From the NCBI GenBank assembly GCA_032718475.1, contig JAUCBJ010007777.1, positions 38,986 to 102,985 of the forward strand: a stretch of 64,000 nucleotides of DNA, written 5' to 3'. Shown here piece by piece: positions 9,811 through 62,289 of this stretch. The number at the start of each line of letters is the position of its first letter. Positions within the stretch are counted from its first letter, which is position 1. Source of the DNA: Nemertoderma westbladi (Eukaryota > Animalia > Xenacoelomorpha). The notes below the pieces were generated by a model, which searched no databases, was not told the DNA's origin, and saw only the letters and a program-made list of their open reading frames with translations. The position numbers and the translations under genes are program-made.

Positions 9811-10795
9811 TTAAGGAGTCAAAATTGTAGAAAAAATTCCCGAAGTTTGCGACGTTTGCGAAATTCGCGAAGAATCCGTCAGTTTCTGTGCCCTAATGGT
9901 TTCGTGACGAAACAATAAAATCTTACACACTTAACACACACGAACTAATTTAATGTGTGTATTAGTATGCCATGCCTGAATAATTAAATAGAAATTGAAT
10001 TAATGAACGCTATTTCAACATGAAATCTACGGAATCAATACACAACACACGCACACTACTGAATTCAAAAATTTATATAGATTGCAACTTATATTTGGCT
10101 ACCTTTTAATGGGTGACTAATTTAATTATTCACCCCTATATATTTGTAGCCTTTTTAATTTGTGCCTCTAATTGAATCAAACATTAAACTATGTCACAAT
10201 ATTGGTCTGTCGGTAGCTGGTCACTGATTCTCTCATAAATTTGTTAATTAGTCGCTGCTCAGTCATTGAACATTTGAACACGTGCTGCTCGAAGACCCCA
10301 CAACGTGTAATAAATTAAACTTTAGCTAATCACAAACAGAGCTGTTCAGTATTATGAGAATAAAGTAATTATGAATAGGCCTAGTACATTTTCATTCGAC
10401 GCTTATGCCTTATGGCTATCATCGCATGAATTTAATATTAGTTTTTTTTTATTGCTAATTAATAATAAATTATTGGGCAAATAGAGCATTATGCCCTATA
10501 TCCTGCCCTTACAATTACATGTTAGAAATATTGATTGACCTTGACTCCATGTTGAGATGATCTGCTACCCACACTGATCGAATACCAACCAGGAACACGC
10601 CAACACAGCTCCAACTCCATCCACTGGACTTTGCACACTTAGTAAACGCAATAATTTTTATTGTCCGTTTAAATCCTTTTTTTGTCCTTTTTTTTTATTT
10701 TTTATGTCCTCCAAAAGTCTAACGTTAGGTTCCATGCTACCGGTTTCTCTACTCCTGTTCTCTCAGGCTATCAGTACCGGTATTCGTATATATAG

Positions 10796-12061
10796 TGTAA
10801 AAGCTTCTGTGGGATCTAGCTGGCCCTTTTGCTTTGCGGTCCGAGTTCCCCCCAGGCGCTGGAATACTCTAAAAGGGCTTTCTAACTATATATATATTCC
10901 CCTCGCCCGCAAGGTACCGTAATAGGTGTTTTAACGGACATAAAAGTCATTCTTCTAGATACGTGCTTTGGAGGACATGGTAAGGCAAAAAACCCGCAAT
11001 ACGGCAAATACTTTTACACAGCCTAGCCGTGATGATTCATATTACGACATCTAACAGCTGGTTGCTGACATGGAAACGGCCATTGGACACATGGTTCTTT
11101 GTTTAGCTTGAGCCAATCAGAGCGATTTTTTCTGTCGATGTGGAGATATTCGGCCGATCATGCTAGAGTGTTCAGTCTTACTGTTTTTTATGATACTGTT
11201 GTGTTGTTGGTATCTAGGCCAGGAACACCGGCTCTAGAGTTAATTCGTTTCATACTTTTAGAAGAAACATTAGTAGGCTTAAGATTATAGAGCGTATAAC
11301 TGTTATCAGTTCATATCATACCAGTTCAACTCATAGCGACTCAATCGGCACATACTGTTTTGTTATCTTAACCTACCGTCTTAATGCTGTTTACTGTTGT
11401 GTTTTAGTTGAATATTATTTGGAGAACATTTATAAAGAACCCAAATTTCCCAATTTTCTTGATACACTACAGGTTAGAGAGACGGGTTATATATAGCGAT
11501 TGCGACTTATATTATTGTGTATGTAGTGAATTTAATGCTATTTGATAAGCACTACATTGGTCCGTTGCTGTTCTCTCTATATATGATAAAATTCATTGAC
11601 GGTCGGCAAATTAGTGAGCAGTATTGTGTGTTACCGGTAGTGTGCATGATTGTGACTGATAACTAAGCATTTCCTAAAGAATGCGCCTCATACGTGAATC
11701 ATAAGCCTTACCGACTTACCGTTGTGATTAGTATAAGTCATATCTCCGTTTACCTAGATAGAGCGCCACGTCCTAAAGGAACTGTTAATATTTCCCGAAA
11801 GTGAATAATATTAGTCAGAAATTATTTATTAACGATCAATCGAATAATACAGTAGGCTTCACTGCAATAATAATCTAAGCCCTAAGAATCCAGCCCCCCG
11901 GGTATATCCAGCGGGTGAATGGATGCGCACTAGGCTGGCTTCTGCTAATGTTGTGTTTATTGGTATTAAATATTTGTCATCTTCTAAAGTATATTTATAA
12001 ACCAAAAGACATATAAATTTTGGCAGGTTAAACTGCTAAAGGTCTTCCAAAAGCGCGTACA
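10796..12061 (+). repeat. 5' LTR (TGTA...TACA)
   Basis: Direct repeat of 27736-29001 (offset 16940) with canonical TG...CA ends. Confidence 0.95.
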
Positions 12062-12126
12062 ATAACAGTTATTGACTTTATTGCAGTAAACAATAAAGTT
12101 GAAAGTACCGGCCGACCGGTAAACCT

Positions 12127-12253
12127 GAACCGGTACTTCTGTAGGTCAGTAGGCCCAACTGCCAGAACCGGCACTGCTGTAGGTCCGTAGGTCCAACTGC
12201 CAGAACCGGTACTTCTGTAGGTCCGTAGGCCCAACTGTCCTAACCGGTACTTC
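12127..12253 (+). repeat. 38-bp tandem repeat (about 3.3 copies) in the retrotransposon leader
   Basis: GAACCGGTACTTCTGTAGGTC(A/C)GTAGG(C/T)CCAACTGCCA repeated. Confidence 0.85.
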
Positions 12254-12414
12254 CAGTATAAGTACATTAGTATTATTCGATTTGATTATTGCATACCGGT
12301 AGGCTGTTTAAGAGATTAGGGACTGTACACCCCTTGTTTCTTTTGGAGCTTACTTATTTCTGTCAGTTTTATTTCCTAGTAAGTTAATATTGAGCTGAAG
12401 ACGTGTAAGTCTGC

Positions 12415-12990
12415 TCAGATTGTACAGATAATTGTAGGCCGGACTGTTGTCGGATTGTTGTTGGGTTTGGAGAGATTACGGCGTGTGTAGAGTTTGTCCG
12501 ATAGAGTGCCGTTAGTAAGTTGGGGCAGCCATAGCTGTAAGGTCAATCCCCTCTTAAAGAATAAGTCGTACTACCGTGTTAGAACGCATACTAACTAACC
12601 GTTTTGGAATCTGCACATACTGTAGTTTATTTAGGCTTGACAGTATTCTGCCAGCGTTTTGGCCTGTGTTTGTTTGTGTGGTCTGTTCAGGTACCGTAAT
12701 AGTTATTACTCAGATATTTGTAGGCTGGATTGTTGTCTAGCTATTATTAGGTCTGAAGAGATTGCTGCGTGTGTAGAGTTTGTCTGATAAAGTGCCGTTA
12801 GTAAGTTGGGGCAGCCATAGCTGTAAGGTCAATCCCCTCTTAAAGAATAAGTCGTACTACCGTGTTAGAACGCATACTAACTAACCATTTCAGAATCTAC
12901 ACGTACGGTAGTTTATTTAGGCTTGGTGGTAGTCTGCCAGCGTTTTGGTTTGTATTTGTTTGAGTATTCTGTACGGGTAGCGTAATATTT
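12415..12990 (+). repeat. Tandem duplication (unit about 286 bp) in the retrotransposon leader
   Basis: The block GCGTGTGTAGAGTTTGTC...AAGAATAAGTCGTACTACCGTGTTAGAACGCATACTAACTAACC starts at 12481 and again at 12767. Confidence 0.9.
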
Positions 12991-14289
12991 ATTATTCAGA
13001 GTTTATGCGATTATTCGCAACATTCATGTCCCCAAGTTTATTCCTACAGTAATTGTGCTTGTTATACATACCGTTATAGTTAAATTAACCCCGGTACTAC
13101 ACGGGCTGCTTGGCGTAGGAAAAGACTGGTGACTTTGTGCTTCGGTCACTCCAGCGGATGCCGTGGTTCTTTTAACTGTTCAAGTATATTTAACTACTGA
13201 TTATTTGTTGTACCAGTACTTGTACCTAATTTAGGGTTTAGTGTACAGTGCTTTCCGAAAGTAATTAGTGTGTAGGCAGTATATTTGTGTTGTAAAGTGG
13301 TTAATAGGCACGCTGGATCTGGTAGTCCGCGGTAATTAACTTCTAGGTAGGAACACTCCGTGATACATAACGTAGTACCTATAGCGATACGGTTATAGGT
13401 CGTCAGGCGGTGGTATTTTCCTATCTGGACAGTGCAATATATTTACTACTACTTATTATTTTCAAATACCGTAGTACCCTGTCTGTTGTAATAACCAGAA
13501 TTCTAACCCTTTGTTAGACTGGTTTGTAGTTTCCCTGTAAAATTACCCTAAAATTTCGTACGTAATATATTTTTGTTGTGTTTAATTAGAGAATTAATCT
13601 CACCCATATCGTAAGTAATTTGTAGTATTAAGTAACTTAAGTAAATTAGAATTATCAGTTTTAGTGTCAAATAAATAGCACTTCACTGAGAGCGCACAGC
13701 TTCTGTGTAGTGACACCCCAGAAATAATAACATTTATTTCAAATATTGACAAACCCCTTTTAAACGGGTATATATCTATTATAAATCAACTCAAACGATT
13801 TATAAATAGTAGGCCTGCCATACAATAACTAGGTCTCAATATCAGTTGGACTACTGCTTAAATAACGGTAATAAAGTAAGTTAAAGTAACCAAGTAACCC
13901 TAAAATATTCAGAAATTCAATTATTCTACAATAATTGACATACCGGTATTTACCATAGGCTTATTATATTTATTTCTATAAATTTGAGCTGAAATTATAC
14001 CGGTACTCTGTAATTAATTCTAGTTCATAATTATACTTATATATACTATCAGTGTAATCTATACCGGTATTCACGATAGGCCTATTATATATTTATATAT
14101 ATTTGTGCTAAATTATATACCGGTACTCTGTGACAAACCTAGTTTACAATACTTATATATACTATAAGTGTATACCGGTATTCTAATATACTGTAATAAA
14201 TTAACGGTACTAGGCCAACGGTCATACTGAATTACTAGACTTGCTTTAACTGAAACTATAGCAGTAGACATTCAACTGTATAGCTAAAC

Positions 14290-16218
14290 ATGTCTGACAC
14301 TCGGCAAAACCTGTCAGACAGTCTAATCGATACAACCATCTGTGACACAGATAGGAGTGTGGAGCGATTAAGAAAGGAGTTCAGTTCACCTCCTACTGCA
14401 AGAAAGGTTATCCCTCCAGTAGTATCAGACCCTAGGCTAATCCACCATAGGTCCATCATAGGCACTCGGGCCCAGGTCAAATGGAACCAAGAGGCAGCTG
14501 TCTTATCGCAGCAACATCTTGGTCAAGAACCTAGTTCCCAGCGACCCGATAGCTCCAGTAGTTCGGATACTGTAGAGCTGAACCCCGAACGCGGAGTGCA
14601 GATGGCGGCTACAGCATACTCGGACCCCCTTCTCACCCTTCCTGCCGCAGTGCTAACTACTATATTGATTGCGGTGGAGGAACATCAAGCCAACTGGTCG
14701 AGAAATAAGCGAGCGACCCAAGATAATTATGCGGGATACGCCAGGGAAGAATTGATGTCTATTGTCGAGTCACAATGGAACTTTCCCGGACCCGGACTCC
14801 CGTTAGATCTGTCCGAAGCTACTTGGGAAGACATACATAGGATGGGAGTGACTAAAGATACGATGGATCCAGCTGTTTGGAAGAGGTCGGCAGCAGGATA
14901 TGTGCAGGGATTCTTCGGCTCCTTAGAGCGATTAGAAGAACAACTGTTTCGACAATCCCAAGGACCTCAAGAGCAGGAAGAACTGCTATATCAAGTACGC
15001 GAAAGAACCCTACGCATTCGACTAATCCTATCAGCTTTTGAGGAAACTTCCAAAAGAAGACAGGACACGTCGCTGCAGGTTGCTGTCAAGACTTGGTTCC
15101 AGCGGGTAGGTCTCAAAGTTCAGGAAACGGCCCAGTGGAAATCCCAGCTGGCTGAGAGACCAACCTATGAAGAACCAACCGATGCCACCCTTTCTCAAGC
15201 GGAAAGTGAAGTGACAGCAGAGAGACCGCGAACTAGAGACGCTATCGACATTTATCTGTCCGACTATCAGCGATTCCTAGGAGACGAAGAGTTGAGGAGA
15301 CGGCTGTCTGGACTTTCCCCTAATAGTGAAGGAACCAAGCTTGTGTTGGATTCAATCGATGCGGAAATGTTAGCTGCAAACCAAGCTGAATTTGATGAAA
15401 AACTCCGCCTCGCTAGAGTCCGAGAAGAACAAATAAAGAAAAAACGGATAGAGGAAAGAAAGGCAGCAGCAGTAACGGCGGCAGAAGCAGAAGCAGAAAG
15501 AAAAGAAGCAGAAGCAGAAAGAAAGGAAGCAGAAGCAGAAAGAAAAGCAGCGGCGGCAGAAGCAGAAGCAGAAAGAAAAGCAGCGGCGGCAGAAGCAGAA
15601 GCAGAAAGAAAAGCAGCAGTGGCAGAAGAAGAACGGAGAGCGTCTGAGGAGACTATCCAACTGGAGTTGGAAAATTTACAAGAGACGCAAGACCACATAA
15701 ATAAACAGTTAACTGCTAGTCAAATGCAGATGATGAGAAAATCTACTCCCAAGCGCCAGGGATACACATCCTCAGAGGAAGGCGAGACCACCGATCCTGA
15801 AGGCGGAGGAAATAGATCTCATCTAAGCAGGCGTAGAAAAACATCTTACCGTCACAAATTGCCTGATTTGCCCCCAGCTGTTAGAAGACAACTAGCTAGC
15901 ACAGACTTGAGTAGTATAGAACCTACAGACCAAATTATTAAGGTCAAAAGACTCCCTACTATAGTTGATGAGCCTGAAATAATTAGGCCTGTCGTTCCCA
16001 AAGTCACCCCTGTGTTAGAGACCCCTGTACTTCCAGAGCTTAACTCTAAATTCCCTTTACATAGTACTACACTGCCTGTACCCGGTAGAACAGTCAATGA
16101 GAATATCCCTGTCCTGATAGCTGAGAGAGAAATCAAAGATTTGTCTCCCGTCGTCCCACGTCAGGTCGTCAGCCCGCTACAATGTTGGCGACTCCCGCTT
16201 CGGCGGTCGAGTGGGTAG
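14290..16218 (+). CDS. Retrotransposon ORF1 / N-terminal Gag extension, 642 aa, coiled-coil with EAERK(A)n repeats
   Basis: Long ATG-initiated ORF inside the LTRs. It is helical and charged, has an (AEAERK) repeat tract at about 15463-15630, and overlaps the next ORF, which is in the -1 frame. Confidence 0.8.
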   Translation: MSDTRQNLSDSLIDTTICDTDRSVERLRKEFSSPPTARKVIPPVVSDPRLIHHRSIIGTRAQVKWNQEAAVLSQQHLGQEPSSQRPDSSSSSDTVELNPERGVQMAATAYSDPLLTLPAAVLTTILIAVEEHQANWSRNKRATQDNYAGYAREELMSIVESQWNFPGPGLPLDLSEATWEDIHRMGVTKDTMDPAVWKRSAAGYVQGFFGSLERLEEQLFRQSQGPQEQEELLYQVRERTLRIRLILSAFEETSKRRQDTSLQVAVKTWFQRVGLKVQETAQWKSQLAERPTYEEPTDATLSQAESEVTAERPRTRDAIDIYLSDYQRFLGDEELRRRLSGLSPNSEGTKLVLDSIDAEMLAANQAEFDEKLRLARVREEQIKKKRIEERKAAAVTAAEAEAERKEAEAERKEAEAERKAAAAEAEAERKAAAAEAEAERKAAVAEEERRASEETIQLELENLQETQDHINKQLTASQMQMMRKSTPKRQGYTSSEEGETTDPEGGGNRSHLSRRRKTSYRHKLPDLPPAVRRQLASTDLSSIEPTDQIIKVKRLPTIVDEPEIIRPVVPKVTPVLETPVLPELNSKFPLHSTTLPVPGRTVNENIPVLIAEREIKDLSPVVPRQVVSPLQCWRLPLRRSSG

Positions 16219-18977
16219 AGGAGGGACGGCGGGGGATGAATCTCCTGCTCGGACAGATGCAGGAGACTGTCCACCAACTTAAGGGAACAGTAAGGGAAGG
16301 TAGAGCAGAGTTGCAAGAAGTGCAGCAAAGTATCGCACTAGAACGCGACAAATTAGTCAACATACAAAAGGGCATACCAATACCCCCAGTAACATTGTGT
16401 CAACCTGTTAGGTCTGAAGTATTACATGCGCAAGGTGTGGAGCCTACACGCATCTATACTGCTAGTGAAGTAGAAACTCCTATAGCAAACCCTATTAAGG
16501 GTGATTATGGACCTGTTGTCAATGATATTCCCTATAGACCTGATAATGATCCGAGAAATTTATATACCGATAATTCGATATTAAATAACACGATGGCCCA
16601 AGAAAGCTTTACGCGTCAGATGGCTAGAACAGAAGCCCGCCAAGCGGTCAAAGTGGGAGAGATCGTCAAATTCAATGGAGATGAGATGAAGTGGTTACCT
16701 TTCAACGAATATTACAAAGACAGCATACAGAACTCTGTGCTATCTAACGGAGAGAAACTTAGGTTCCTCATCAAGTGTTTGGAAGGACCTCCCAAGTTAA
16801 TGGCATTAAAGTTTATTGGACATCCAGAAGGATTAAGACAAGTTTGGGATACATTAAACATCAGGTATGGTAACAAGGATAACATAGCTAAGTATTTGTA
16901 TGCAAAATTAGTAGCCCCCCGACACTTCCTTAGTAGCGGGATTATAGAGTTTTCCGATGAGATTCAAGAGATCTGTATACAACTGGACTGGTTAGGTAAG
17001 TCGCATGAATATCAGAGTTCCATGGTTATTGGAGCCGTAGTCTCTACTTTACCAAAGGATGGCGTATGTACACGCTGGGACAAGAAAGTGTTGTACATGA
17101 ATGAACAACAACGACGAAGTCCTACCATGGCTGATCTCATGTCCTTCTTAGATGGTGAAGTAAAACTACAACTCATCAAGCAGTCCAGAGAGAAAACATC
17201 GGAAAATAAGGTAAGTGAAAAACCCGCTTCTAGGAGAAGGGTAACACCGGTGTGTTACACTGACGACGGCGAAAGCCAAGCTTCTCAAGAAGAGGACAGC
17301 GGGAAAGACACCGAGCGATCTTACTATATTGACAAAACCTCAAAAGATGTAAGTAAATACAAAGCTCGAAACAACGATAGGAGAGAACAGGTTGCCAAGA
17401 CCCCTCCTCAGTCTCCTAACAGAATGCACCGAAGAAAACCCGAAGAAAAAACGAGAGTGCATCAAGTTACCCAAGGTAAAGTGAGTAACATAAAACCTAA
17501 CTGTGCGCTGTGCGACGGGACCCACCGTTTGAGTGCGTGTGCTGAATTTCTAAAGAAATCCCTTATAGACAGACGTACAGTCGTGTGGGACAAGCGGTTA
17601 TGCTATAATTGCCTCAGACCAGGACACCAACGGCGAACCTGTTACTCCGACATAAAGTGTGCAAAGTGTAGCGCGAAACATCACATCTTGTTACACAGTG
17701 AGTTCGAACGAGACAAACAGAGTCAGGTAAGTGAGCCCGAACTACATGTCCAATTCAGTGATGTGAACGACACTGATCAAGAATCTGAGATGGAAGGATT
17801 CTATACTGACGAATTCTCCGACGCCAATGAATCCTGTTATCTAATCAATACCGCAGTGTATCGAGCACTTACTTATGAAAAGGACACCAACAATGAGTTT
17901 TCCCCAACTACTTTTGCCAAACAACCCTCTTGGAAAGCTCCAACTTCCAATGTAGGAATCAGAGAATTTCCTGTAGTGCAGGTAAGAGTTCACGGTCTTA
18001 ACAAAAGTTACATAGTGAACGCCCTCCTTGACTCCGGCAGCACAGGAACATTCATCGATCAAGAATTAGCCGAGGATATCTTTGCTGGACAACCCAAATT
18101 CCGGACTAAATTGAATATGTCAGGAATTATGCAGGTTTGGAAATCTACCCTAACGGCAGATTACTATGTAGGTGTGTTGTCCACCCCCCAGGATAAGTTA
18201 GGAACACAAGGTATAAGGTCGGTAAAAATGGTGGCTATAAAGAACTTCGCCACTACTCAAGCAGACCTTTATAATTGGGACGAGGATGAGAGCATCCAAC
18301 ATCTTAAGATACCTCGATTCCAGACAGATTATCCTGGAGTGCAAATACTCATCGGCCAAAACGCGCACGAGGCGCTCGAGACATTGGAGAAACGGCCTGC
18401 TCAACCACAGCCACTGCAAACCTATGCGGTAAGAACTAGAGTAGGTTGGTACTTTACTGGCCCTTCCCGCAGGACTCTCGCAGAGAGAATGCCACAAGAA
18501 CAAACATACCAGGTAAACGATTGGGAAGTAGAGAGCAGTGAGGTGGACGAACAAACTGAGGGAACACCATACTCCTCAGATAATGACGACATCTACCAAC
18601 TCTTCGATGAAGAGAACACAATCGACCTACTTACAGAAAACCAAACCTGGAAAAATCAGGTGAACCTATGTCAACTGATTCGCCCATCGGAACCCATCGC
18701 TTACAATGACGAACTAAACGATGAGATAGAGCGTTACAACGCTAGAACTCGGGACGAACTAGCTGTACGGTTCTTTACTCAGGAACTAGTGGAGCCCAAT
18801 TCATATGATAAGGCTCTATCGATAGAAGAAGAGAGAGCCAAGCAAATCCAGGAAACCACTACACGTTTTTTAAAAGAACAAGGTCGATATGAAATCGGCC
18901 TACCATTTCGAAAACGAGAACCTAGATTTATAAATAACAGACCCTTGGCAGAGAAAAGAATCGATCAATTACATTGA
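16182..18977 (+). CDS. gag: BEL/Pao Gag (DUF1759-like capsid, three zinc knuckles) plus aspartic protease
   Basis: KFNGDEMKWLPF...LSNGEKLRFLIKCLEG capsid region; knuckles CALCDGTHRLSAC, CYNCLRPGHQRRTC, CAKCSAKHHILLH; protease ALLDSGS...ILIG; TRVGW. Ends at a single TGA that is in frame with pol. Confidence 0.93.
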   Translation: MLATPASAVEWVEEGRRGMNLLLGQMQETVHQLKGTVREGRAELQEVQQSIALERDKLVNIQKGIPIPPVTLCQPVRSEVLHAQGVEPTRIYTASEVETPIANPIKGDYGPVVNDIPYRPDNDPRNLYTDNSILNNTMAQESFTRQMARTEARQAVKVGEIVKFNGDEMKWLPFNEYYKDSIQNSVLSNGEKLRFLIKCLEGPPKLMALKFIGHPEGLRQVWDTLNIRYGNKDNIAKYLYAKLVAPRHFLSSGIIEFSDEIQEICIQLDWLGKSHEYQSSMVIGAVVSTLPKDGVCTRWDKKVLYMNEQQRRSPTMADLMSFLDGEVKLQLIKQSREKTSENKVSEKPASRRRVTPVCYTDDGESQASQEEDSGKDTERSYYIDKTSKDVSKYKARNNDRREQVAKTPPQSPNRMHRRKPEEKTRVHQVTQGKVSNIKPNCALCDGTHRLSACAEFLKKSLIDRRTVVWDKRLCYNCLRPGHQRRTCYSDIKCAKCSAKHHILLHSEFERDKQSQVSEPELHVQFSDVNDTDQESEMEGFYTDEFSDANESCYLINTAVYRALTYEKDTNNEFSPTTFAKQPSWKAPTSNVGIREFPVVQVRVHGLNKSYIVNALLDSGSTGTFIDQELAEDIFAGQPKFRTKLNMSGIMQVWKSTLTADYYVGVLSTPQDKLGTQGIRSVKMVAIKNFATTQADLYNWDEDESIQHLKIPRFQTDYPGVQILIGQNAHEALETLEKRPAQPQPLQTYAVRTRVGWYFTGPSRRTLAERMPQEQTYQVNDWEVESSEVDEQTEGTPYSSDNDDIYQLFDEENTIDLLTENQTWKNQVNLCQLIRPSEPIAYNDELNDEIERYNARTRDELAVRFFTQELVEPNSYDKALSIEEERAKQIQETTTRFLKEQGRYEIGLPFRKREPRFINNRPLAEKRIDQLH

Positions 18978-19007
18978 CGCCTTACAGCTAATGCTTCAGC
19001 GAAAGAA

Positions 19008-22000
19008 ATGTACCAAACTCAGCTGAAGAAATTTATAACAAAGGGATACGCGGAGAGAGTACCGGAAGGAACACCAGTGACTGAGAGAACGTATTACTTA
19101 ACACATCATTACGTTCCCAAACCCGGTAAACCACACGAAGTACGAGTCGTATTCGATGGCTCCGCACTATATATGGGCCAATCCCTCAATTCAGAGTTGT
19201 TATCAGGACCCAACTTACTCCAATCTTTGTTGGGAATACTTTTAAGATTAAGACAATATTCCATCGCATTCGCCTCCGATATAGAAGGAATGTTCTTACA
19301 AGTCAAGGTGCTGGATAGAGATAGAGACAGCCTGAGATTTCTGTGGTGGCCTGAAGGAGACCTCAACCAGAAACCGGTAGAGTACTGGATGACCATCCAG
19401 GCTTTCGGGATCATATCAAGCCCTTCCAACGCCTGCTCCGTGGTTCGGACCACTGCGAATGACAACCGGGACGCCTTCTCAAAAGAGGTGATAGACAACA
19501 TAAAACGTAATATATACATGGACGACAATTTAAGGTCCCTTCCATCAGTAGAAGAAGCCATAGCTGTCGCGAAAGGAACGGTAGAGTGTTTAAAAAGAGG
19601 TGGATTTCGACTGACGAAATTCACTAGCAACTCCCGTGAGTTTCTGGAAGCCATACCGGTAGAAGACCGAGGAGCGAAAGACCTAGACTTAATAAAGGAC
19701 GAGCTTCCTGAAACCAAGACACTAGGCTTGAAGTGGGACACTGAAAGAGACATCCTGTTTTTTCAGTTAAAACAGCGAGATAATCCAGTCCGGACCAAAC
19801 GGATTTGTTTAAGTATCCTGAGCACTTATTTCGACCCATTGGGATTTATTAGCCCGGTTATATTGATTGCTCGGAGTTTAGTACAACAAATGTGGCTTGA
19901 AAACCACTCATGGGACGATCCGCTTAAGGGAGAATTGTTAAAGAAATGGATGAAATGGGAAGATTCTCTACCTGCCATCGAGAACTTTATAATTTCCCGT
20001 GCATATTTTGGCCATGTTCTTCCTACGTATTCCTATCAACTCCATGTGTTTGGAGACGCTAGCGACATGGGAATAGGTATAGTTGCATATCTGCGAGTCG
20101 AAACTCCGGATGGAATCAAAGTCGCCTTGGTTACATCTAAGGCATTGATTAACAACAAGTTAAAGGTTCCTCGAGCGGAGTTAAAGGCGGCTTTATACGC
20201 TACAGCCATCGGCCGGAACGTAACGGAACAAATCGACTATCCACTGGAGAAAACGGTTTATTGGACCGACGCTTTACTCGTGTTGGAGTATCTAACCAAT
20301 GAAGTCTGTCAGTTCAGTGTTTTTGTTACTAACAGAGTAGCTATTATTCTTAGTCGCACAAAGATAGATCAATGGAGACATTGCCCTGGTACGATTAATC
20401 CAGCCGATATCGCCTCCAGGGGAGCAACTCCACAGGAACTGATAGATACTCCAGATTGGTTGGGTGGACCCGACTTCCTGAGCAAGGAAGAGGATGAATG
20501 GCCCCCTCACCTTACTACGGCGGAAATTAGACAAGCCAAGGGAGCGGAGACAGTTAAACCTAAAACCCGGGCGAGTAAATCGAAGTTATTTAAACCGACT
20601 ATCGATCTATCTGTATTACATGCTTCCGGAAACGATGCTTCGGATCCACAATCCCTCGCCACAAATAAATCTGTTGTGGAAATTAGAGATAGAGATTGGA
20701 AATCTGGAATACCAGACGTCTCGCAAGGAATCTCACCCCTGCTGCAGAGAGCAATGCATCACTACAGTTCCTGGAATCGGCTCTGTAAAGCCGTCACATA
20801 TTTAAGGAGATGTTTTCATCATCACTACTCCAGGATGAAGACCATTAGTGATACCGCTCCATTGACATCTGCGCAAGTTCATGTTATTAAAGATCTACCA
20901 AAGTATAAGATATCCGACCGGTTTCTAAAGGAGAAACTTAGCTACCAGGAGCATGAAGAAACTAATAAGCAGATACTGAGACTCCTGCAATGCTATGAGG
21001 ATTCCGAAAAGTATTTCCTGTTGTTGAGAAATCCGCAGATGCGCTTAAGGGATCGATTCTCGAGCACAATGATAGATGGGTTAATACGTGTTGGAGGAAG
21101 ACTCACCAATGCGCCATTATCCTTTGACACTAAATTCCCCATACTCATTAGAAATCTTGAAGTACAAATCAAGATGATTGTAGATGTTCACAGTAAACTT
21201 TATCATGCTGGTAGAGAACGAGTTCTTAGCGAAATTCGAACTCGCTATTACTTTCATAAACCTCGTAGAGCTCTGAACCAAGTTCTTAGAAACTGCATAC
21301 CCTGTAGGAAAGCATTCAGTAGGCCTTTAACACAGCGAGAGGCAGAATTACCTAGGGAACGAGTAAGCTTCTATGAACCACCTTTTACTAATACTGGTGT
21401 AGATTTATTTGGCCCTATTGAAGTATATCGTGCTAGGACTATAGTCAAGAGATGGTGTGTCATCTTCGTGTGCATGACTTGTAGAGCCATCCATCTCGAT
21501 ATGGTGAACGATCTATCTACCAACAGCTTCGTCTTAAGTTTACGACGACAGATCGCTCGCTTCGGGACGAGTAATACCATGAGATCGGATAAGGGAACGA
21601 ACTTCATTGGTGCCAACAACGAAATACAGGCTTACGTGAAGGACTGGAACCAAAGACAGGTGGACGACCAGCTAAGGATAACAGCGTCTAGCTGGACCTT
21701 CAACGCCGCCGACGCCCCTTGGTGGGGAGGAAGTTGGGAGAGATTAATTCGAAGTGTCAAAACCGCATTTCACTTTATAGTGCCATGCCGCGCGTATCTC
21801 ACCGACGAACTTTTGCGGACATTAATGGAGGAAATCGCTGCCTATCTCAACGAGAGACCGCTTATGCCAGTCTCATCGAGTCCCGATTCCCTGGAAGCGC
21901 TAACACCCGCGCACTTCCTACTGAAGAAACCTGTAGCCATGCTCCCACGATCGGAGATTGCCGACGGAGACGAATACTGCCGTCGAACTTGGCAACTTAT

Positions 22001-22400
22001 GCAGTTGCTATCCCGTCGTTTCGCTGACCATTTCGAGAAACATTATCTGCCCACGCTACAACTTCGAACTAAGTGGTTTGCGCAGCAAGAAAACGTCAGC
22101 GCCGGAGATATGGTGCTTATTGTAGATCCAGACCTCCCACGTAAACGGTGGCAGACAGGTCGTATCATCGAGACCCACATCTCGGATGATGGTTTAGTAC
22201 GCTCGGTAGAACTCGTCGTCATGCGGCGTAACTTCAAGAAGCCAGGCATAATCTTTGAGACGCAACAACTCAATCGCCCAGTTGGTCGTTTATGTTTACT
22301 GGAAAGAGACAGAGAACTCTCCGGAAACTATGGAAGGCAAGACACTCTTCCCACGACCACCTCCCTAATTCCTCAAACATCTAGGGACTCCCTCACGTGA
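19008..22400 (+). CDS. pol: BEL/Pao Pol: reverse transcriptase, RNase H, integrase
   Basis: RT: VRVVFDGS, SDIEGMFLQV, LRFLW, YMDD. RNase H: LHVFGDAS, PRAELKAA, YWTD, NPADIASRG. Integrase: H-x4-H...CIPC, GVDLFGP, SDKGTNF, WERLIRSVK, with a DUF5641-like tail. Confidence 0.96.
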   Translation: MYQTQLKKFITKGYAERVPEGTPVTERTYYLTHHYVPKPGKPHEVRVVFDGSALYMGQSLNSELLSGPNLLQSLLGILLRLRQYSIAFASDIEGMFLQVKVLDRDRDSLRFLWWPEGDLNQKPVEYWMTIQAFGIISSPSNACSVVRTTANDNRDAFSKEVIDNIKRNIYMDDNLRSLPSVEEAIAVAKGTVECLKRGGFRLTKFTSNSREFLEAIPVEDRGAKDLDLIKDELPETKTLGLKWDTERDILFFQLKQRDNPVRTKRICLSILSTYFDPLGFISPVILIARSLVQQMWLENHSWDDPLKGELLKKWMKWEDSLPAIENFIISRAYFGHVLPTYSYQLHVFGDASDMGIGIVAYLRVETPDGIKVALVTSKALINNKLKVPRAELKAALYATAIGRNVTEQIDYPLEKTVYWTDALLVLEYLTNEVCQFSVFVTNRVAIILSRTKIDQWRHCPGTINPADIASRGATPQELIDTPDWLGGPDFLSKEEDEWPPHLTTAEIRQAKGAETVKPKTRASKSKLFKPTIDLSVLHASGNDASDPQSLATNKSVVEIRDRDWKSGIPDVSQGISPLLQRAMHHYSSWNRLCKAVTYLRRCFHHHYSRMKTISDTAPLTSAQVHVIKDLPKYKISDRFLKEKLSYQEHEETNKQILRLLQCYEDSEKYFLLLRNPQMRLRDRFSSTMIDGLIRVGGRLTNAPLSFDTKFPILIRNLEVQIKMIVDVHSKLYHAGRERVLSEIRTRYYFHKPRRALNQVLRNCIPCRKAFSRPLTQREAELPRERVSFYEPPFTNTGVDLFGPIEVYRARTIVKRWCVIFVCMTCRAIHLDMVNDLSTNSFVLSLRRQIARFGTSNTMRSDKGTNFIGANNEIQAYVKDWNQRQVDDQLRITASSWTFNAADAPWWGGSWERLIRSVKTAFHFIVPCRAYLTDELLRTLMEEIAAYLNERPLMPVSSSPDSLEALTPAHFLLKKPVAMLPRSEIADGDEYCRRTWQLMQLLSRRFADHFEKHYLPTLQLRTKWFAQQENVSAGDMVLIVDPDLPRKRWQTGRIIETHISDDGLVRSVELVVMRRNFKKPGIIFETQQLNRPVGRLCLLERDRELSGNYGRQDTLPTTTSLIPQTSRDSLT

Positions 22401-22947
22401 TACGTCTGGAGTGGGTGTATGACTATATTGTTTTATCTATTTTATTATATTTTTATATGCGAACTTTATTATGTATTTTATTATAATCGTTTTTATTCAA
22501 TTTTATTTAGTAGAATGATATTTTAGTGATTATTTAGTAGATTAGTGCAATATATTAGTGTTTATTACGTACGTAATTACCTATAATATATATTTAGTGC
22601 GACGGCGAGAAATAATTTTTTCTCTTTCCTTACTGTCCGTATCATATTGTAAATACGTGGCTACAGTAAGATGAAATGTCCGTACTTCTTAAAGTACAAT
22701 AAAGCCACTACTATATTCAAGTATTATTGGTAGGCAGAGTATTAGGAATGCAAAGTTCAGATCCTCGTGTCTCGGCTAAACCAAGCTCTGGGTAGACCTT
22801 GGAAACGACTTGCCTCTTCACACTGACATTGCTTCGTGTGATATTGCTCTTCTACCTTATATTAAATAATACATATAGTAGCGTGATGTCCATATAACAG
22901 TAGCGTAAAACGCAAATAAATCTGTTAAACTTTTTGACCATCTGTAA

Positions 22948-23215
22948 TTCTAGTCGATTAAGATATCGCGGCACCCACCGATATACTTGAAAGACAAATT
23001 CTAGAATCAGTGGTTAACGTCCCCAGACAAGCTCTGGAATAAATCGGTGCCCATCTTAAATATTAATTAATATTTATTAAAATTTGTAAAATTCAGATCC
23101 TTTAAAATTTCTAGTCAATTAAGATATCGCAGCACTTACCGATACTCTTAAAAGACAAATTTCATAGAATTAAGGATCATATGTCCCCAGACCTGCTCTG
23201 GAATCAAATTGTGTC
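22948..23215 (+). repeat. Diverged tandem duplication (period about 160 bp) between pol and the extra ORF
   Basis: CTAGTC(G/A)ATTAAGATATCGC(G/A)GCAC...AAAGACAAAT...GTCCCCAGAC..GCTCTGGAAT occurs at about 22950 and 23111. Confidence 0.8.
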
Positions 23216-24135
23216 AATTTTAACATCAAATAATAAAAATTCACGGGAATAAATTTAAATTCATATTTTTGAATTTCATAAATTGTCATTTTGTACAATT
23301 TATAACATTCCCAAAATTCCATTAATTAATAGATCATGGGAGCGGAGATTCATCCTATTGAGTGTATTAGAGTGCGAGAATCTCCAACATATAGTCAATA
23401 GCCGATAAAATAATAAAATCATGCATAAAGAGAATATTGACAATTAAAGAATTATTATTAAATAGCATCCCAGATCTGTATGCATGAGAATTACCCTAAT
23501 TCTACCGCTAGCATTCCATAATGTCACCATAGCAACACCCACGCTAGAATTAGAAGCAAGTTAAAAGAACAATAGAAAGCTTGTCCCCTTGCCTAGCATA
23601 GAGAACACATAGCACACTGTTAGTATCCAAGGATACACAGTAATAACGTGACATTCTGGAAGGCACTGACTAACGGACAAATGGCCTGTATGTGTGCTGT
23701 TAGCGACAGTTGTGTGGAATTTGTGCGTTTATAGGTGAATGTTACTGCTAAAGTATGTTTACAGTAGCTAGTCGCAATTGTAAAAATAGCCTAACTCTCC
23801 TATAGAAAGAACCTAAGTGGATCCAAGCCTTTGGGACGGACAGTGGAGTGACTTGTGCCGGTTATCGTTGTCGTGCTGTTGCTACATGTTGGCGTAAACA
23901 CCGCGACGACGGTACATCGGCGCTGAGAATCCCACTGTCCGGGGGCAAAGAAAGGTAGGCAGCGACGCCCGCTCGCCTAAATATAAACTTATTTGATATT
24001 AATAAACTCAGATAGCAGATATGACGGAGTTGATCGAAGATGATCTTGGTATTAGGGAGCAATATACCCTACCTTTACAAGCATTTGTGGATAGCTTGAT
24101 ACGCGGTGAAGCCGATCCAACCATTACGGAGGACG

Positions 24136-27100
24136 ATGGTCGTTATATCGAACCGTTATATCGTTATATTCGAGCGAAACCTGTTCGATGTATCACCTAA
24201 GATCGCTCGTCTTAAACGATCACTGAATAAACCCATGATCAGAGTTCCGGAATACTCGGTCAGGCCTCCTCATAACCTAGTGAGACCTCAAACTCTCGAT
24301 CCTAACAGTATCACTGATCCTCCCGAACTATATTCCCTGTTCAAAGACTTAGTGTTACCCGAACAACTAATCGGTGGTGCTCCGGTAGTGGGTTCGTTAG
24401 ACATCCGCCCATCCTACTTAGCCGGATTGGGACGCGGGCAGCTAATATCGCCCTTTGATCCTTACAATCGTCCAGGATTAAACCCGATTCAACCCGCCAC
24501 AGAAGTCGAGGAGAGCGTTATAAGAAACGCTTTAGACGCCATTCGACAGAAAATCGGAAAGGGAACACAAGATTGTTTAGAGAAACGTAAACTACACCAA
24601 CAAGTCCAATCGGTGAAGGAGTTAGCCTTGCCACAGTTCGATAGGGAAATCCAAAACCTCGAGGAAGACATAGAGCTTGGACGCACGTATTCTCTACAAG
24701 AATTTTTAGAAGAACGCTTACAAAGACAAGCGGAAGAAAATCTAATCGAAGAGAAACACACGAAACTGGAAGAAAGAGAAGAAGCCGCTTTAGCCCAACC
24801 TGAAGCTCAAATCCTCATGACCGACCTCTACTCTAAAACCGTTCGTCATCCCTCGATGATTCCACATTTCGGGGACAAGCTCTTCGCGACGATACAGCCT
24901 CAACCGGTTGATATCAGTACAGGATCGCAAAATCTTATCGCTGATGCCCCTATGTTACAGCATCCGCCGATCGAGGCTGCTCGTGTTGACGGTATCCTCG
25001 TTGAACCTCCGGACAATCGAGCGGATCTTGTCCGTCGTATGGTACACGATGTCAACATACGCGCTAGACCTTTACAGAACTCGTTTTATGGGATTAAAGA
25101 CCACCCTTATTACGTTAATCTGACTCAATATTATATGGTAAAACCAGAGGACCCGACACATAATTTAAAGTTTCTACCACTAATAAATCCTCTAGACATT
25201 GTTGAACTCGAACAATTGCAGAAACATCTGGATCAGTTAGTAAAGGTAAACTCATTTAGAAAACCATATAACATTTCTCGAATCGAAAAAGATATAGAAC
25301 CTCCTTATAATCTCGATGGATTTATTAAAACTCGATTAGTCCATTGGAATCTAGATGTATTATTTGAAGAGGAGAAAATACCAAGATATGGAAATGTGGA
25401 GACGTATACCACTCGGCACATGAAGTATAGTGATCTCCCTGACGCTAACCAATGCGCCACCTTGTGGCATCCAGTAGGGATGACCCTAGAGAACGCCACC
25501 AAGGAGTGGAATGAAACTCTTAATGTTATTGAGATGTATGGAGTTGTCACCTACGATAATGAAGGTAGCGTTCCGGTCGGAGAACTAGGAACTACGCGCA
25601 TGATCCACATACGCGGATTAGCTGGTTCTACCCACGTGTTTACTCGAGCGTGTTCCGACGTGATGGATTATTCTTTTGAAACTCTCACCGAAACACAAAA
25701 GAATCTCCGACATGGACAATTCGAACTCGCGCAGCGTTACTTCATTGACACCGAACGCAAACCGGCCATGGGCATCGATGGATCGATGTTACCCCAGCCC
25801 GTACTCGAGATGTTGTTCAACGAAAGAATCCTTAAAATCGGCTCAGCTGTTTATGGAGATCTCCAAAACGACTTTCGGAATATGGAGAACATTCCATACC
25901 CTTTCGTTGATACTCAGCTGATTGCTCCCTGGGCAGAAGGCCGAGGTTTCTTCCGCACCATGTATGCTAATACGTCTAGCAACATTACAAAGGTGCAACG
26001 AACTTCCATCGGACATCTTGCCTTTCAGGAATACGGATGGAATTTCAAAGTCGGAAATCCCATTAACTATCAACAAGTATACGGAGACCATTATTCTCGA
26101 TTATACTTTGATGGACCTTTGACCGCACCTGGCGCCGTGTATAGCTTCATGAGTGTTCCACTCCGTCCCTCCTTAGCTATCTACACGATCTTTGAAAACA
26201 CCGCACTTGCCGGTTGGCTAGCCGATGTGTGCAGTCGTACTATACGCGCCCATCCATTAATACTTGGGACCAAACTCGCTAAGCTAGATGAACATAATAA
26301 ATTCATCCGTTTCGAATGTTTCCGGCGATTTTTAACCCCGTTCCGCAACGTGGATAGCCAATTTAAAGACCGCGCTTTGACCAAGCTCAGCCTAAGAATC
26401 TCAGCTGCAGAGAAGTTGGATAGCGCTGGATACGCCATTTTCAAAGAGATTTGTATATCGAACTTGCACTCCTCTGTTATACAAAGACCTCGAATCCCCA
26501 CAGGTTATTCTGTCGTAGAAATTCAGACAATAGGTCCACCTGAAGAGACAGACACGCCCACCTCAGCTATGCACTTGGAAGACGAGCCAATATGTTTAGA
26601 ATCTGAGGAGATTCAGCCTATCACGCCCCGGAACAGCGACAACGATTACATCATAGAATGGTATCAAGGTCCACAGTGTCTCACTGCGTACGATTATCGA
26701 CATGCTAACTATGTCTCTAGGCAACGTTGTCGGCTATGCGCATCGAGAGACCACGATACGCCCATGGACACCAACGTCCGCTGTTCCTATTTCCAAGAAC
26801 AACCGACTATGGAAATTTATTGCGCATATTGCAGACTCAATAACTTGCATATCTTTGCGGTTTGCCCTCAATTTATGACTCAATGTCACCATTGTCAACT
26901 AAAGGGACATGCTAGTTTAGACTGCCCTTTTAATCACGATTTGGAAAGCGTAGATGAAATGATTACACTACGTTACATCAGAGCTTGGGAAGCGAACGCT
27001 GATTTACATTGTGATTCGCGCCATCGCTATTATCCCGGACGCGCTTACGAAGGAGTTTATGCGTTCCATCCTTATCTATTCGCTTCGGTTGAACAGAAAT

Positions 27101-27657
27101 CACGCATATCAAGTTACGAGCTACTGAAGCGCGTCGGAGAATGTATTTCAACCAAATTCGTACGCAAATTTCTTAGGAGTGTTAATCCTAGCGACCTTCA
27201 TTCCTATAACTTAATCAATTATATCCGTCAGGATCCGGACTATGGAGACTTGTTTGTTAACTCACACCCCGAGTTACAGGAAGTGTATCGACGGCCTTAC
27301 GAATACCGAGCCCGAGAACGCGAGTTGGAAAGGACCATTAAACCCCGGAGGTTTCTAACTGCCTATGGTCCACCCACGGCCCTCGTTCAGACCACTCGTA
27401 AAGGACCCGTAAGAGCGGCTGTCTTGAAACGAGCTCTCAAAGCCGTTAGACCCCTCTCACCTGACGTTGATGTCAATCAACCCGGTACTTCGACTGGCGG
27501 ATACACCGACCATAATCCTACACCCTCTGATGCAATCATATTGCACCCTTCACCCAGGAGTTATAGCCCTCCTTGTAAAGTGGCTCGCCCCAAAGAGAAA
27601 AGGACTCTGGCTAGCTTTAAGAAACTGCGTAAACGCCGTCCGCGCAAGAAAGACTAA
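24136..27657 (+). CDS. Extra retrotransposon ORF (about 1170 aa): coiled coil, DEDDy/WRN-EXD-like 3'-5' exonuclease domain, CCHC zinc knuckles, basic tail
   Basis: Uninterrupted 3.5-kb ORF ending 78 nt before the 3' LTR. First ATG is 24136 (alternative 24235). Motifs: VVTYDNEG (Exo I DxE), LPQPVLEMLFNERILKIGSAVYGDL...FVDTQLIA (Exo II), PLRPSLAIYTIFE (Exo III-like), CRLCASRDH, CAYCRLNNLHIFAVC, CHHCQLKGHASLDC, KKLRKRRPRKKD. The ORF itself is certain; the domain assignment is by eye. Confidence 0.8.
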   Translation: MVVISNRYIVIFERNLFDVSPKIARLKRSLNKPMIRVPEYSVRPPHNLVRPQTLDPNSITDPPELYSLFKDLVLPEQLIGGAPVVGSLDIRPSYLAGLGRGQLISPFDPYNRPGLNPIQPATEVEESVIRNALDAIRQKIGKGTQDCLEKRKLHQQVQSVKELALPQFDREIQNLEEDIELGRTYSLQEFLEERLQRQAEENLIEEKHTKLEEREEAALAQPEAQILMTDLYSKTVRHPSMIPHFGDKLFATIQPQPVDISTGSQNLIADAPMLQHPPIEAARVDGILVEPPDNRADLVRRMVHDVNIRARPLQNSFYGIKDHPYYVNLTQYYMVKPEDPTHNLKFLPLINPLDIVELEQLQKHLDQLVKVNSFRKPYNISRIEKDIEPPYNLDGFIKTRLVHWNLDVLFEEEKIPRYGNVETYTTRHMKYSDLPDANQCATLWHPVGMTLENATKEWNETLNVIEMYGVVTYDNEGSVPVGELGTTRMIHIRGLAGSTHVFTRACSDVMDYSFETLTETQKNLRHGQFELAQRYFIDTERKPAMGIDGSMLPQPVLEMLFNERILKIGSAVYGDLQNDFRNMENIPYPFVDTQLIAPWAEGRGFFRTMYANTSSNITKVQRTSIGHLAFQEYGWNFKVGNPINYQQVYGDHYSRLYFDGPLTAPGAVYSFMSVPLRPSLAIYTIFENTALAGWLADVCSRTIRAHPLILGTKLAKLDEHNKFIRFECFRRFLTPFRNVDSQFKDRALTKLSLRISAAEKLDSAGYAIFKEICISNLHSSVIQRPRIPTGYSVVEIQTIGPPEETDTPTSAMHLEDEPICLESEEIQPITPRNSDNDYIIEWYQGPQCLTAYDYRHANYVSRQRCRLCASRDHDTPMDTNVRCSYFQEQPTMEIYCAYCRLNNLHIFAVCPQFMTQCHHCQLKGHASLDCPFNHDLESVDEMITLRYIRAWEANADLHCDSRHRYYPGRAYEGVYAFHPYLFASVEQKSRISSYELLKRVGECISTKFVRKFLRSVNPSDLHSYNLINYIRQDPDYGDLFVNSHPELQEVYRRPYEYRARERELERTIKPRRFLTAYGPPTALVQTTRKGPVRAAVLKRALKAVRPLSPDVDVNQPGTSTGGYTDHNPTPSDAIILHPSPRSYSPPCKVARPKEKRTLASFKKLRKRRPRKKD

Positions 27658-27725
27658 CTGTTTAGAGTATTTACGTATATTAGAAACTGTGATTTTGTAT
27701 ATGTTATAGACTCAAATCCCATTTT

Positions 27726-27735
27726 CTGGGAGCGG
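27726..27735 (+). promoter_or_regulatory. Short polypurine-tract-like sequence before the 3' LTR
   Basis: CTGGGAGCGG directly abuts TGTAAAAG, the expected position for the plus-strand primer. Confidence 0.6.
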
Positions 27736-29001
27736 TGTAAAAGCTTCTGTGGGATCTAGCTGGCCCTTTTGCTTTGCGGTCCGAGTTCCCCCCAGGCGCT
27801 GGAATACTCTAAAAGGGCTTTCTAACTATATATATATTCCCCTCGCCCGCAAGGTACCGTAATAGGTGTTTTAACGGACATAAAAGTCATTCTTCTAGAT
27901 ACGTGCTTTGGAGGACATGGTAAGGCAAAAAACCCGCAATACGGCAAATACTTTTACACAGCCTAGCCGTGATGATTCATATTACGACATCTAACAGCTG
28001 GTTGCTGACATGGAAACGGCCATTGGACACATGGTTCTTTGTTTAGCTTGAGCCAATCAGAGCGATTTTTTCTGTCGATGTGGAGATATTCGGCCGATCA
28101 TGCTAGAGTGTTCAGTCTTACTGTTTTTTATGATACTGTTGTGTTGTTGGTATCTAGGCCAGGAACACCGGCTCTAGAGTTAATTCGTTTCATACTTTTA
28201 GAAGAAACATTAGTAGGCTTAAGATTATAGAGCGTATAACTGTTATCAGTTCATATCATACCAGTTCAACTCATAGCGACTCAATCGGCACATACTGTTT
28301 TGTTATCTTAACCTACCGTCTTAATGCTGTTTACTGTTGTGTTTTAGTTGAATATTATTTGGAGAACATTTATAAAGAACCCAAATTTCCCAATTTTCTT
28401 GATACACTACAGGTTAGAGAGACGGGTTATATATAGCGATTGCGACTTATATTATTGTGTATGTAGTGAATTTGATGCTATTTGATAAGCACTACATTGG
28501 TCCGTTGCTGTTCTCTCTATATATGATAAAATTCATTGACGGTCGGCAAATTAGTGAGCAGTATTGTGTGTTACCGGTAGTGTGCATGATTGTGACTGAT
28601 AACTAAGCATTTCCTAAAGAATGCGCCTCATACGTGAATCATAAGCCTTACCGACTTACCGTTGTGATTAGTATAAGTCATATCTCTGTTTACCTAGATA
28701 GAGCGCCACGTCCTAAAGGAACTGTTAATATTTCCCGAAAGTGAATAATATTAGTCAGAAATTATTTATTAACGATCAATCGAATAATACAGTAGGCTTC
28801 ACTGCAATAATAATCTAAGCCCTAAGAATCCAGCCCCCCGGGTATATCCAGCGGGTGAATGGACGCGCACTAGGCTGGCTTCTGCTAATGTTGTGTTTAT
28901 TGGTATTAAATATTTGTCATCTTCTAAAGTATATTTATAAACCAAAAGACATATAAATTTTGGCAGGTTAAACTGCTAAAGGTCTTCCAAAAGCGCGTAG
29001 A
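27736..29001 (+). repeat. 3' LTR (TGTA...TAGA)
   Basis: Matches the 5' LTR except at about 4 positions seen by eye (near 28474, 28687, 28864 and 29000). The terminal CA reads GA. Confidence 0.95.
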
Positions 29002-29297
29002 TATAGCACTATTTTGCTGTATTGTATGTACAGATGTAGGTATAAAGCAGGTATTTCTGTATTTTAGTACCGGTACCGGCACCGGTACTGCTATAGGCCT
29101 ACTGTGTAGCCTACCATTTAAATACGGTAATGGTAGGCCTACCGGTTGTGCTAATAAATTTTAAATAATTGATAGGCCAAACTGGATTGCAGGATTGTGG
29201 AAAATGTGGATATACCTTTCACATAATTTAGGCCTATTACTGTATTAGTTTTATAATCAATACTGGATCATGACTACTGTCTGAGTAGTGTTACGGA

Positions 29298-30192
29298 TAA
29301 CCTGCTCCTTTCCCTGATTTGGTAAAGTGACTGTTTATTGTTTTGGTTAGAAAATGCGGCCTTAACCTGCTCCTTTCCCTCAATTAGTTAAGTGATCGTT
29401 TATTGTTTTGGTTAGAAAATCCCGCCTCTGTAACCTGCTCCTTTCCCTCAATTGGTAATGTTATTGTTTATTGTTTTGGTTAGAAAATCCCGCCTTTGTA
29501 ACCTGCTCCTTTCTCTCAATTGGTAATGTTATCGTTTATTGTTTTGGTTCGAAAATCCCGTCTCTGTAACCTGCTCCTTTCCCTCAATTAGTTAAATGAT
29601 CGTTTATTGTTTTGGTTAGAAAATCCCACCTCTGTAACCTGCCCCTTTCCCTCAATTAGTTAAATGATCGTTTATTGTTTTGGTTAGAAAATCCCGCCTC
29701 TGTAACCTGCTCCTTTCCCTGAATTGGTAAAGTGACCTTTTATTGTTTTGGTTAGAAAGGCCGGCCTCTGTAACCTGCCCCTTTCCCTCAATTAGTTAAA
29801 TTATCGTTTATTGTTTTGGTTAGAAAATCCCGCCTCTGTAACCTGCTCCTTTCCCTCAATTAGTTAAGTGATCGTTTATTGTTTTGGTTAGAAAATTCCG
29901 CCTCTGTAACCTGTCCCTTTCCCTCAATTAGTTAAATGATCGTTTATTGTTTTGGTTAGAAAATCACGCCTCTGTAACCTGCTCCTTTCCCTCAATAAGT
30001 TAAGTGATCGTTTATTGTTTTGGTTAGAAAATCCCGCCTCTGTAACCTGCTCCTTTCCCTCAATTAGTTAAGTGATCGTTTATTGTTTTGGTTAGAAAAT
30101 CCCGTCTCTGTAACCTGCTCCTTTCCCTGATTTGGTAAAGTGACTGTTTATTGTTTTGGTTAGAAAACTCGGCCTTAACCTGCTCCTTTCCA
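29298..30192 (+). repeat. 68-bp tandem repeat (about 13 copies) inside the MULE-like MITE
   Basis: Unit TAACCTGCTCCTTTCCCTCAATTAGTTAAGTGATCGTTTATTGTTTTGGTTAGAAAATCCCGCCTCTG; the period was measured from 29431 to 29499. Confidence 0.92.
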
Positions 30193-30789
30193 TCTATTGG
30201 TAATTGTTTTTGGCTATAAAATGAGTGTTTTGCTACGTCATGTGGTAATCGATTATCGACAACAACCACAAACTATTAAATATAGAGCCTTTTTACCACA
30301 GGCGCATATGGAAATCTATCTCATAGTCTATAAATCATGGAATCATGGAATGTTTTGGCACAGGCATAGTGAAATGAACTGTCTGACAGTCCAGAAATCA
30401 GCAGTCTGACAGTTTGAAGAAATACATACATAAAAAGTCATTAAAAAGACAATAAAAGTCATTAAAAGGACAACAAAAGTCATTATGCATAATTCGTAAA
30501 AAAAAATGACAAAAATAGTCAAATAAAAGGACATAAAAAATCACTGCCCTTAGTAAATAAGTATAATAATAGAGAATAACTGAATAAGTAGTAATAGAGG
30601 TAAAAATGAAAATCAAAAGACGATCATTGGTTGCTATAATGACATATGTCACTGTACTTTTATGCTAAACTCATTTTGTCATGTTCAATATTTGTTTTAA
30701 GTGGCCCTACAGTACATGTATGTCAATATGAATTTTGAGAATTAAGAGGAAATCCTGCCAAAGTACAGTACCTAACTGATATAGACTTT

Positions 30790-60943: not shown

Positions 60944-61089
60944 CTATAAAAAAGCAGCAAAGCGGGTCTTAATTCAGTGTCCCGTACAACCTATTCTTTA
61001 TAATTATATATTATAATATAATTCGTTCGGTATAAATTATTTCTGAAAATTTGCATGAATTCGTATTTCATTGTTGTAACTATGTAAAG

Positions 61090-62225: not shown

Positions 62226-62289
62226 TATGTAAAGTACCGGTCAGCCGGTGAATATTTCGTACTATATAGTTTCCGATAGTTATTGCCCC

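Follow-up and report, generated by a model that had tools for sequence, protein, structure and literature searches.

Why would a long terminal repeat (LTR) retrotransposon carry what looks like a nuclease gene in the position that an envelope (env) gene normally occupies? The question is raised by a 64,000-nucleotide stretch of the Nemertoderma westbladi genome (contig JAUCBJ010007777.1, positions 38,986 to 102,985 of the forward strand; hereafter the window), in which a recently inserted BEL/Pao element of 18.2 kb occupies positions 10796-29001. Its accessory gene, open reading frame 3 (ORF3, protein P0001), is intact and is predicted to encode an RNase D/WRN-type 3'-5' exonuclease followed by CCHC knuckles. 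An earlier note on this DNA had described an intact sense-strand reading frame of about 1170 amino acids (aa) between pol and the 3' LTR, and this description holds, with 1173 codons open throughout, set off from the pol stop by a 1.7-kb spacer. When the sequence from pol to the LTR is shuffled 200 times, by comparison, the longest frame that arises has 187 codons.

ORF3 does not encode an envelope protein, as the same note had argued. Specifically, the highest 19-residue Kyte-Doolittle mean is 1.2, and by this hydropathy scan the protein has no transmembrane or signal-type segment; env identity is rejected accordingly. The protein has a long charged N-terminal arm, and a Pfam scan found no match for its first 440 residues. 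The Cys/His cluster and the basic tail that had been pointed out are both present, the two knuckles of the cluster match retroviral nucleocapsid (E 6e-4), and about 165 residues separate them from the predicted exonuclease domain. A 59-codon frame that overlaps the start of ORF3 may represent an upstream reading frame or an alternative start of ORF3.

The exonuclease motifs quoted in the earlier note are all found (8/8), in the order given there, at 25543-26196. When 1.84 billion representatives were scanned in full with HMMER, only two matches to ORF3 were obtained, P0002 (648 aa, E 2.9e-7, about 30% identity) and P0003 (575 aa, E 8.7e-4), which are proteins from ENA assemblies on contigs of 9-11 kb. 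Besides the exonuclease region, the three proteins share the Cys/His cluster and, behind it, a short motif. A profile built from them matches 57 bacterial PF01612 domains at 96.7% (hhalign, E 4e-10, 176 columns), whereas the reversed profile scores 0.08, 40 column shuffles reach 0.57 at best, and none of four other ORF3 segments exceeds 1.24. Additionally, an Atlas search gives PF01612 in 25 of 30 matches with a score of 0.93 (4-10 of 100 shuffled proteins attain 0.9), and a scan of 201 genomes gives six profile matches at E<=0.1, the sole stop-free one being a stand-alone PF01612 relative. These two scans are unbiased and agree with the match to PF01612. The best Atlas cluster of P0003 combines PF01612 (100%) with zf-CCHC (61%) at a score of 0.92, a layout found in Euglenozoa; giant-virus and fungal exonucleases are among the Atlas neighbours of P0002 and P0003. 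Taken together, the profile match makes it very probable that the ORF3 domain has an RNase D/WRN-type exonuclease fold.

Several observations weigh against this assignment. The ORF3 domain of the window by itself scores 66-71% over 49 columns, the hhalign target PF01612 was our own choice and not the outcome of a library-wide comparison, and a Pfam scan of P0001 gives no family at E<=1. AlphaFold models have a predicted local distance difference test score (pLDDT) of 30 from one sequence and 31 from three sequences, and the Foldseek and VIA results are noise. The fold expected in the earlier note is thus made probable by the profile match to PF01612, the models and fold searches being uninformative.

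The predicted active site comprises D474-x-E476, D575 and Y683-x3-E687, in which the last acid is Glu instead of Asp, in agreement with the DEDDy-family reading of the earlier note. D474, E476 and D575 align with the reference acids and are conserved in all three family members. Exo III reads Y-x3-E in ORF3 and P0002 and the canonical Y-x3-D in P0003; hhalign placed it 15 residues earlier, where there is no acid, and BLASTP against P0002 favours the later register. At the DNA level, the pair of P-L-x6-Y motifs at Exo III agrees in 12/45 bases and gives no sign of a duplication. The site as predicted is therefore a D-E-D-E variant and not a canonical DEDDy one. Counting against an active enzyme, Exo III has Asp in all 45 references with the motif matched (of 57), and the Glu may weaken or end catalysis. 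We nevertheless consider it somewhat likelier that catalysis is retained than that it is lost. As to the subfamily, the profile scores against three bacterial subsets, RNase D and PolA types among them, are 41.0, 37.6 and 40.9, with no preference, and the match to EXD2 is weak (E 0.47-0.94), such that the subfamily of the predicted domain is not assignable from comparison with bacterial references. A closer kinship with Mut-7, EXD1 and Egalitarian, which the earlier note named as members of this family, is accordingly not supported so far: comparison with bacterial references does not put the domain closer to them than to RNase D or PolA types.

Further relatives did not emerge from the other searches. 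A word-based search with P0001 residues 380-1000 gave 0 of 2754 candidates (lengths 645-2053 only), one with an alignment in which Exo I was mis-aligned gave 0 of 3178, and one with P0002 residues 40-270 recovered only P0002. No related loci were found in metagenome, viral or prokaryote collections, nor among phages, where the matches had E>=6.

Is ORF3 maintained? Contigs of four public runs, whose depth was not taken as copy number, cover 30/30 bins of the element, ORF3 among them, with pieces up to about 15% diverged; in these listed runs the element family is abundant and varied. Among the listed differences, silent and replacement changes stand at 6:1 in ORF3, 9:1 in pol, 6:6 in gag-protease and 2:3 in the first ORF, and against a neutral silent share of 0.29 the excess in these listed differences is significant for both ORF3 (6/7, p=0.003) and pol (9/10, p=1e-4). 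None of the 12 listed indels (of 210) falls in ORF3, and one 730-base piece carries 102 differences and no gap. On the other side, the test comprises 34 coding rows among 40 shown of 2952 differences, picked by the tool, and is not a dN/dS estimate; gaps also occur in 3 of the 12 listed contig pieces within ORF3. In terms of these sequence comparisons, ORF3 appears to be under purifying selection, and neutral evolution, which the earlier note had held to speak against a functional cargo, is not borne out by this small sample.

The element around ORF3 is well delimited. Self-comparison reveals a single long direct repeat surrounding ORF3, which trims to an LTR pair of 1266 bp each with 4 differences. 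The insertion lies within a host repeat (10646-10795 and 29002-30551) that has a 68-bp internal tandem array, and the boundaries are confirmed by an inverted, uninterrupted copy of this repeat at about 61087-62226, in which TATAG occurs once. Empty-site joints in the run contigs are not taken to prove that the insertion is polymorphic, since its target is repetitive and has this uninterrupted paralogue. The Pfam domain set above cut-off (DUF1759, Peptidase_A17, Integrase_H2C2 and DUF5641) places the element in BEL/Pao, RVT_1 and the protease being below cut-off. In line with this placement, it has TG...CA LTRs, a short (5-bp) target duplication and the order protease, reverse transcriptase, RNase H and integrase (PR-RT-RH-IN) with Pao-type domains. 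The gag-pol of this copy is interrupted, as the frame of gag-protease differs from that of the first ORF, with the change near 16125-16218, and an in-frame stop lies at 18975-18977 near the front of RT; these may reflect programmed recoding or damage. The first ORF is probably the front of gag. It contains AEAERK-type repeats ahead of gag, and the gag region is unusually long. The leader has its tandem repeats at 12127-13000 and 13940-14172, together with a duplicated 115-bp block and several splice-donor-like sites.

Table 1. Coordinates of the BEL/Pao element and of the features of ORF3 in the window.
Feature	Position	Strand	Remarks
Target-site duplication, left copy	10791..10795		TATAG; single copy at uninterrupted paralogue near 62077-62081
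5' LTR	10796..12061	+	1266 bp, TG...CA
LTR 11-mer	11296..11306	+	Exact reverse complement of 12062-12072; candidate self-primer if transcription starts at 11296
Primer-binding-site position	12062..12072	+	Complementary to LTR 11296-11306
Leader	12073..14289	+	2.2 kb, AT-rich; tandem repeats of 38 bp and 286 bp
First ORF	14290..16218	+	Charged, coiled-coil-like protein of 642 aa; Pfam gives no family above cut-off
gag-protease	16125..18977	+	DUF1759 (E 5e-11), knuckles, aspartyl protease (E 0.014); ends at in-frame stop
pol	18978..22400	+	RVT_1 (E 0.003), Peptidase_A17 (Pao; E 4e-36), integrase zinc finger, DUF5641 (E 6e-20)
59-codon ATG frame	24021..24200	+	Over ORF3 start, other frame; protein-like composition, no Pfam match
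ORF3 (P0001)	24136..27657	+	1173 aa, open throughout
Predicted DEDDy-family 3'-5' exonuclease domain	25513..26235	+	Residues ~460-700
Domain residues			D474 (25555), E476 (25561), D575 (25858), D592 (25909), Y683 (26182), E687 (26194)
Cys/His cluster	26728..26925	+	Residues 865-930: atypical C-x2-C-x4-H-x9-C group and two CCHC-type knuckles (896-910, 917-930)
Lys/Arg-rich tail	27583..27654	+	Nuclear-localization-signal-like, judged from composition
Polypurine tract	27728..27735	+	Abuts 3' LTR
3' LTR	27736..29001	+	1266 bp, starts TG, ends GA (GA is one of the 4 LTR differences)
Target-site duplication, right copy	29002..29006		TATAG

As no TGG occurs within 100 bases past the 5' LTR, the element has no ordinary tRNA primer site. 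Instead, the 11 bases directly behind the 5' LTR (offset 0) are complementary at 11/11 positions to a stretch within the LTR itself, and the 11-mer motif occurs three times in the window, namely at the post-LTR site and once in each LTR. An 11-base match is reached at 0.04-0.14% of background positions; with five offsets allowed, 33 of 5000 simulated LTRs reach it. LTR-related sequence at the primer position marks self-priming, according to passages of PMC2864245. Self-priming of the element is thereby slightly favoured. Against it stand the following points. The match was spotted by eye before its test, and the 11-mer is a near-palindrome that could be a protein-binding site. A helix is predicted only for an RNA starting at 11296, and it forms no less readily when the middle of the RNA is shuffled; RNA folding thus adds nothing beyond the complementarity and is rejected as independent support.

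What, then, might the ORF3 product do? We propose, tentatively and at somewhat less than an even chance, that it trims the 3' ends of single-stranded RNA for the element's own replication. The knuckles would hold single-stranded RNA and pass its 3' end to the active site, by analogy with the trypanosome RNase D (TbRND), whose knuckles increase RNA binding and cleavage (passages of PMC7797062). The most specific candidate substrate would be the element's own primer, cut from the RNA 5' end, a candidate suggested by the absence of a tRNA primer site together with the 11-base complement to its own LTR. Such a self-primer would require a 3' end flush with the duplex, and a single-strand-specific exonuclease would create it. 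Set against this, priming occurs in particles, while the basic tail suggests a nuclear location. Tf1, moreover, makes its primer with RNase H alone and needs no exonuclease. The full version of the proposal, a self-primed BEL/Pao lineage without a tRNA primer in which an env-slot knuckle exonuclease anneals and trims the primer folded onto the 11-base site, is improbable as a whole.

The anti-silencing role suggested in the earlier note is rather unlikely. ORF3 would degrade or trim host precursors of PIWI-interacting RNAs (piRNAs) or small interfering RNAs (siRNAs), or serve as a nuclear decoy for small-RNA or exosome-targeting factors, and the family would thereby escape repression. Mature piRNAs carry a 2'-O-methyl group and are resistant to such enzymes, which counts against this role; the abundance and variety of the family in the listed runs and the basic tail are in its favour, and a separate ORF past the 1.7-kb spacer fits expression apart from gag-pol. 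The combination of exonuclease and knuckles is the layout of TbRND, overexpression of which depletes small guide RNAs (passages of PMC7797062), whereas in bdelloids small RNAs continue to cover the DEDDy families, whose copy number shows no clear gain (PMC5408684).

Given the Glu in place of an otherwise invariant Exo III Asp, ORF3 could also be a catalytically weak or dead RNA-binding adaptor in the style of EXD1, Egalitarian or Maelstrom, bringing element RNA to the germline or the nucleus, and the knuckles and the charged N-terminal arm would suit such a protein. Dead relatives, however, usually lose several acids, whereas here all four positions are still acidic, the Tyr is retained, and P0002 has the same Y-x3-E at about 30% identity while P0003 is canonical. 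Although EXD1 and Maelstrom are named as inactive DEDD derivatives (PMC5408684), we regard an adaptor as quite improbable.

An exonuclease acting on DNA ends, in the style of WRN or of proofreading, would clear mismatched or untemplated bases from the ends of complementary DNA before strand transfer or integration. PF01612 includes DNA exonucleases, PolA domains score as well as others, the basic tail is compatible, and an 18-kb genome would benefit from editing (the usual BEL/Pao size being 4.2-10 kb in passages of PMC3118150). Nevertheless, the nucleocapsid-type knuckles indicate single-stranded RNA and the gene is not fused to RT, which leaves this role distinctly improbable. That ORF3 is a captured host gene of no benefit to the element is highly improbable, because its silent-site excess resembles that of pol, it is covered in all four runs together with gag-pol by pieces up to about 15% diverged, and no sequence search found a close cellular relative, even though extra ORFs are often captured behind pol (passages of PMC6431247) and neutral variation within the genome is seen for the env and GDSL ORF3s of bdelloids (PMC5408684).

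Exonuclease ORF3s have been known since 2017 with no function demonstrated. The present element adds a second LTR superfamily to their range; here the active-site change is a different one, and RNA-binding knuckles are present. Because of this second superfamily, the abundant and recently active family and the signs of selection, capture of such genes looks recurrent and useful. Two separable questions follow, that of the self-primer duplex as candidate substrate and that of anti-silencing, and either would explain a nuclease cargo. If trimming of the self-primer is true, the element would hold a dedicated primer-maturation gene, and exonuclease ORF3s would have a first definite task. Self-priming would be notable by itself in a BEL/Pao element if not already published.

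Elsewhere in the window lie a GC-rich satellite of 64 bp in 67 copies, 95% matched (49587-53876), and an open frame on the reverse strand (54402-55118) whose Cys-rich product begins with a hydrophobic stretch and has no Pfam match, possibly a secreted host gene. Broken reverse transcriptase fragments of non-LTR retrotransposons, judged from translations, are found at 2591-3848, 6386-7778, 32516-32989 and 40204-40895.

DEDDy ORF3s have been described in the Gypsy-like Juno and Vesta elements and the Penelope-like Terminons of bdelloid rotifers, and 3'-end processing and a mut-7-like role have already been proposed for them (PMC5408684); passages of reviews repeat these reports (PMC5718144, PMC6431247, PMC6338049). 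In the literature searched (Repbase, Dfam, GyDB, subscription papers and preprint supplements lay outside its scope), no exonuclease ORF was found in a BEL/Pao element and no report of such an ORF3 exonuclease with knuckles. The only BEL/Pao third genes named in passages of this literature are env genes, and PMC5348765 does not mention an exonuclease. The novelty that the earlier note had left to a search is therefore partial: an exonuclease ORF3 is not new as a kind of cargo, nor are the ideas on its role, which were published for Gypsy-like elements, and it is the BEL/Pao setting and the knuckles that were not found in print.

Self-priming in Tf1-type elements involves an 11-base stretch and an RNase H cut and is not known outside Gypsy-type elements. 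The present element is like them in that LTR-complementary sequence right behind the 5' LTR replaces the tRNA site (passages of PMC2864245), and differs in that its loop would be about 755 bases. Compared with BEL/Pao elements that carry env (roo, Tas and Cer7), it shares the gag-PR-RT-RH-IN order, the Pao Pfam families and the TG...CA LTRs (passages of PMC5408687, PMC554778 and PMC3118150), whereas its third gene is not an envelope, its length is 18.2 kb as against 4.2-10 kb, and it has no tRNA primer site. With TbRND, ORF3 shares an exonuclease domain followed by C-terminal CCHC fingers, but TbRND is a mitochondrial host enzyme of about one third the size with four fingers near the domain (passages of PMC7797062), and the likeness is one of layout and not of demonstrated sequence kinship. 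The closest counterparts are the bdelloid ORF3s of Juno, Vesta and the Terminons (PMC5408684), which likewise lie on the sense strand in the env position, have an RNase D-like DEDDy domain with one Asp-to-Glu change and no transmembrane segment, and have the same candidate roles, their function too being untested. Compared by description and not by sequence, the bdelloid hosts are Gypsy-like or Penelope-like elements and the host here is BEL/Pao; the bdelloid motif is DEED, whereas that predicted here is D-E-D-E with the change at Exo III; and the bdelloid ORF3s have at most a Cys-His-Cys motif, whereas the 1173-aa protein described here carries CCHC knuckles (PMC5408684).

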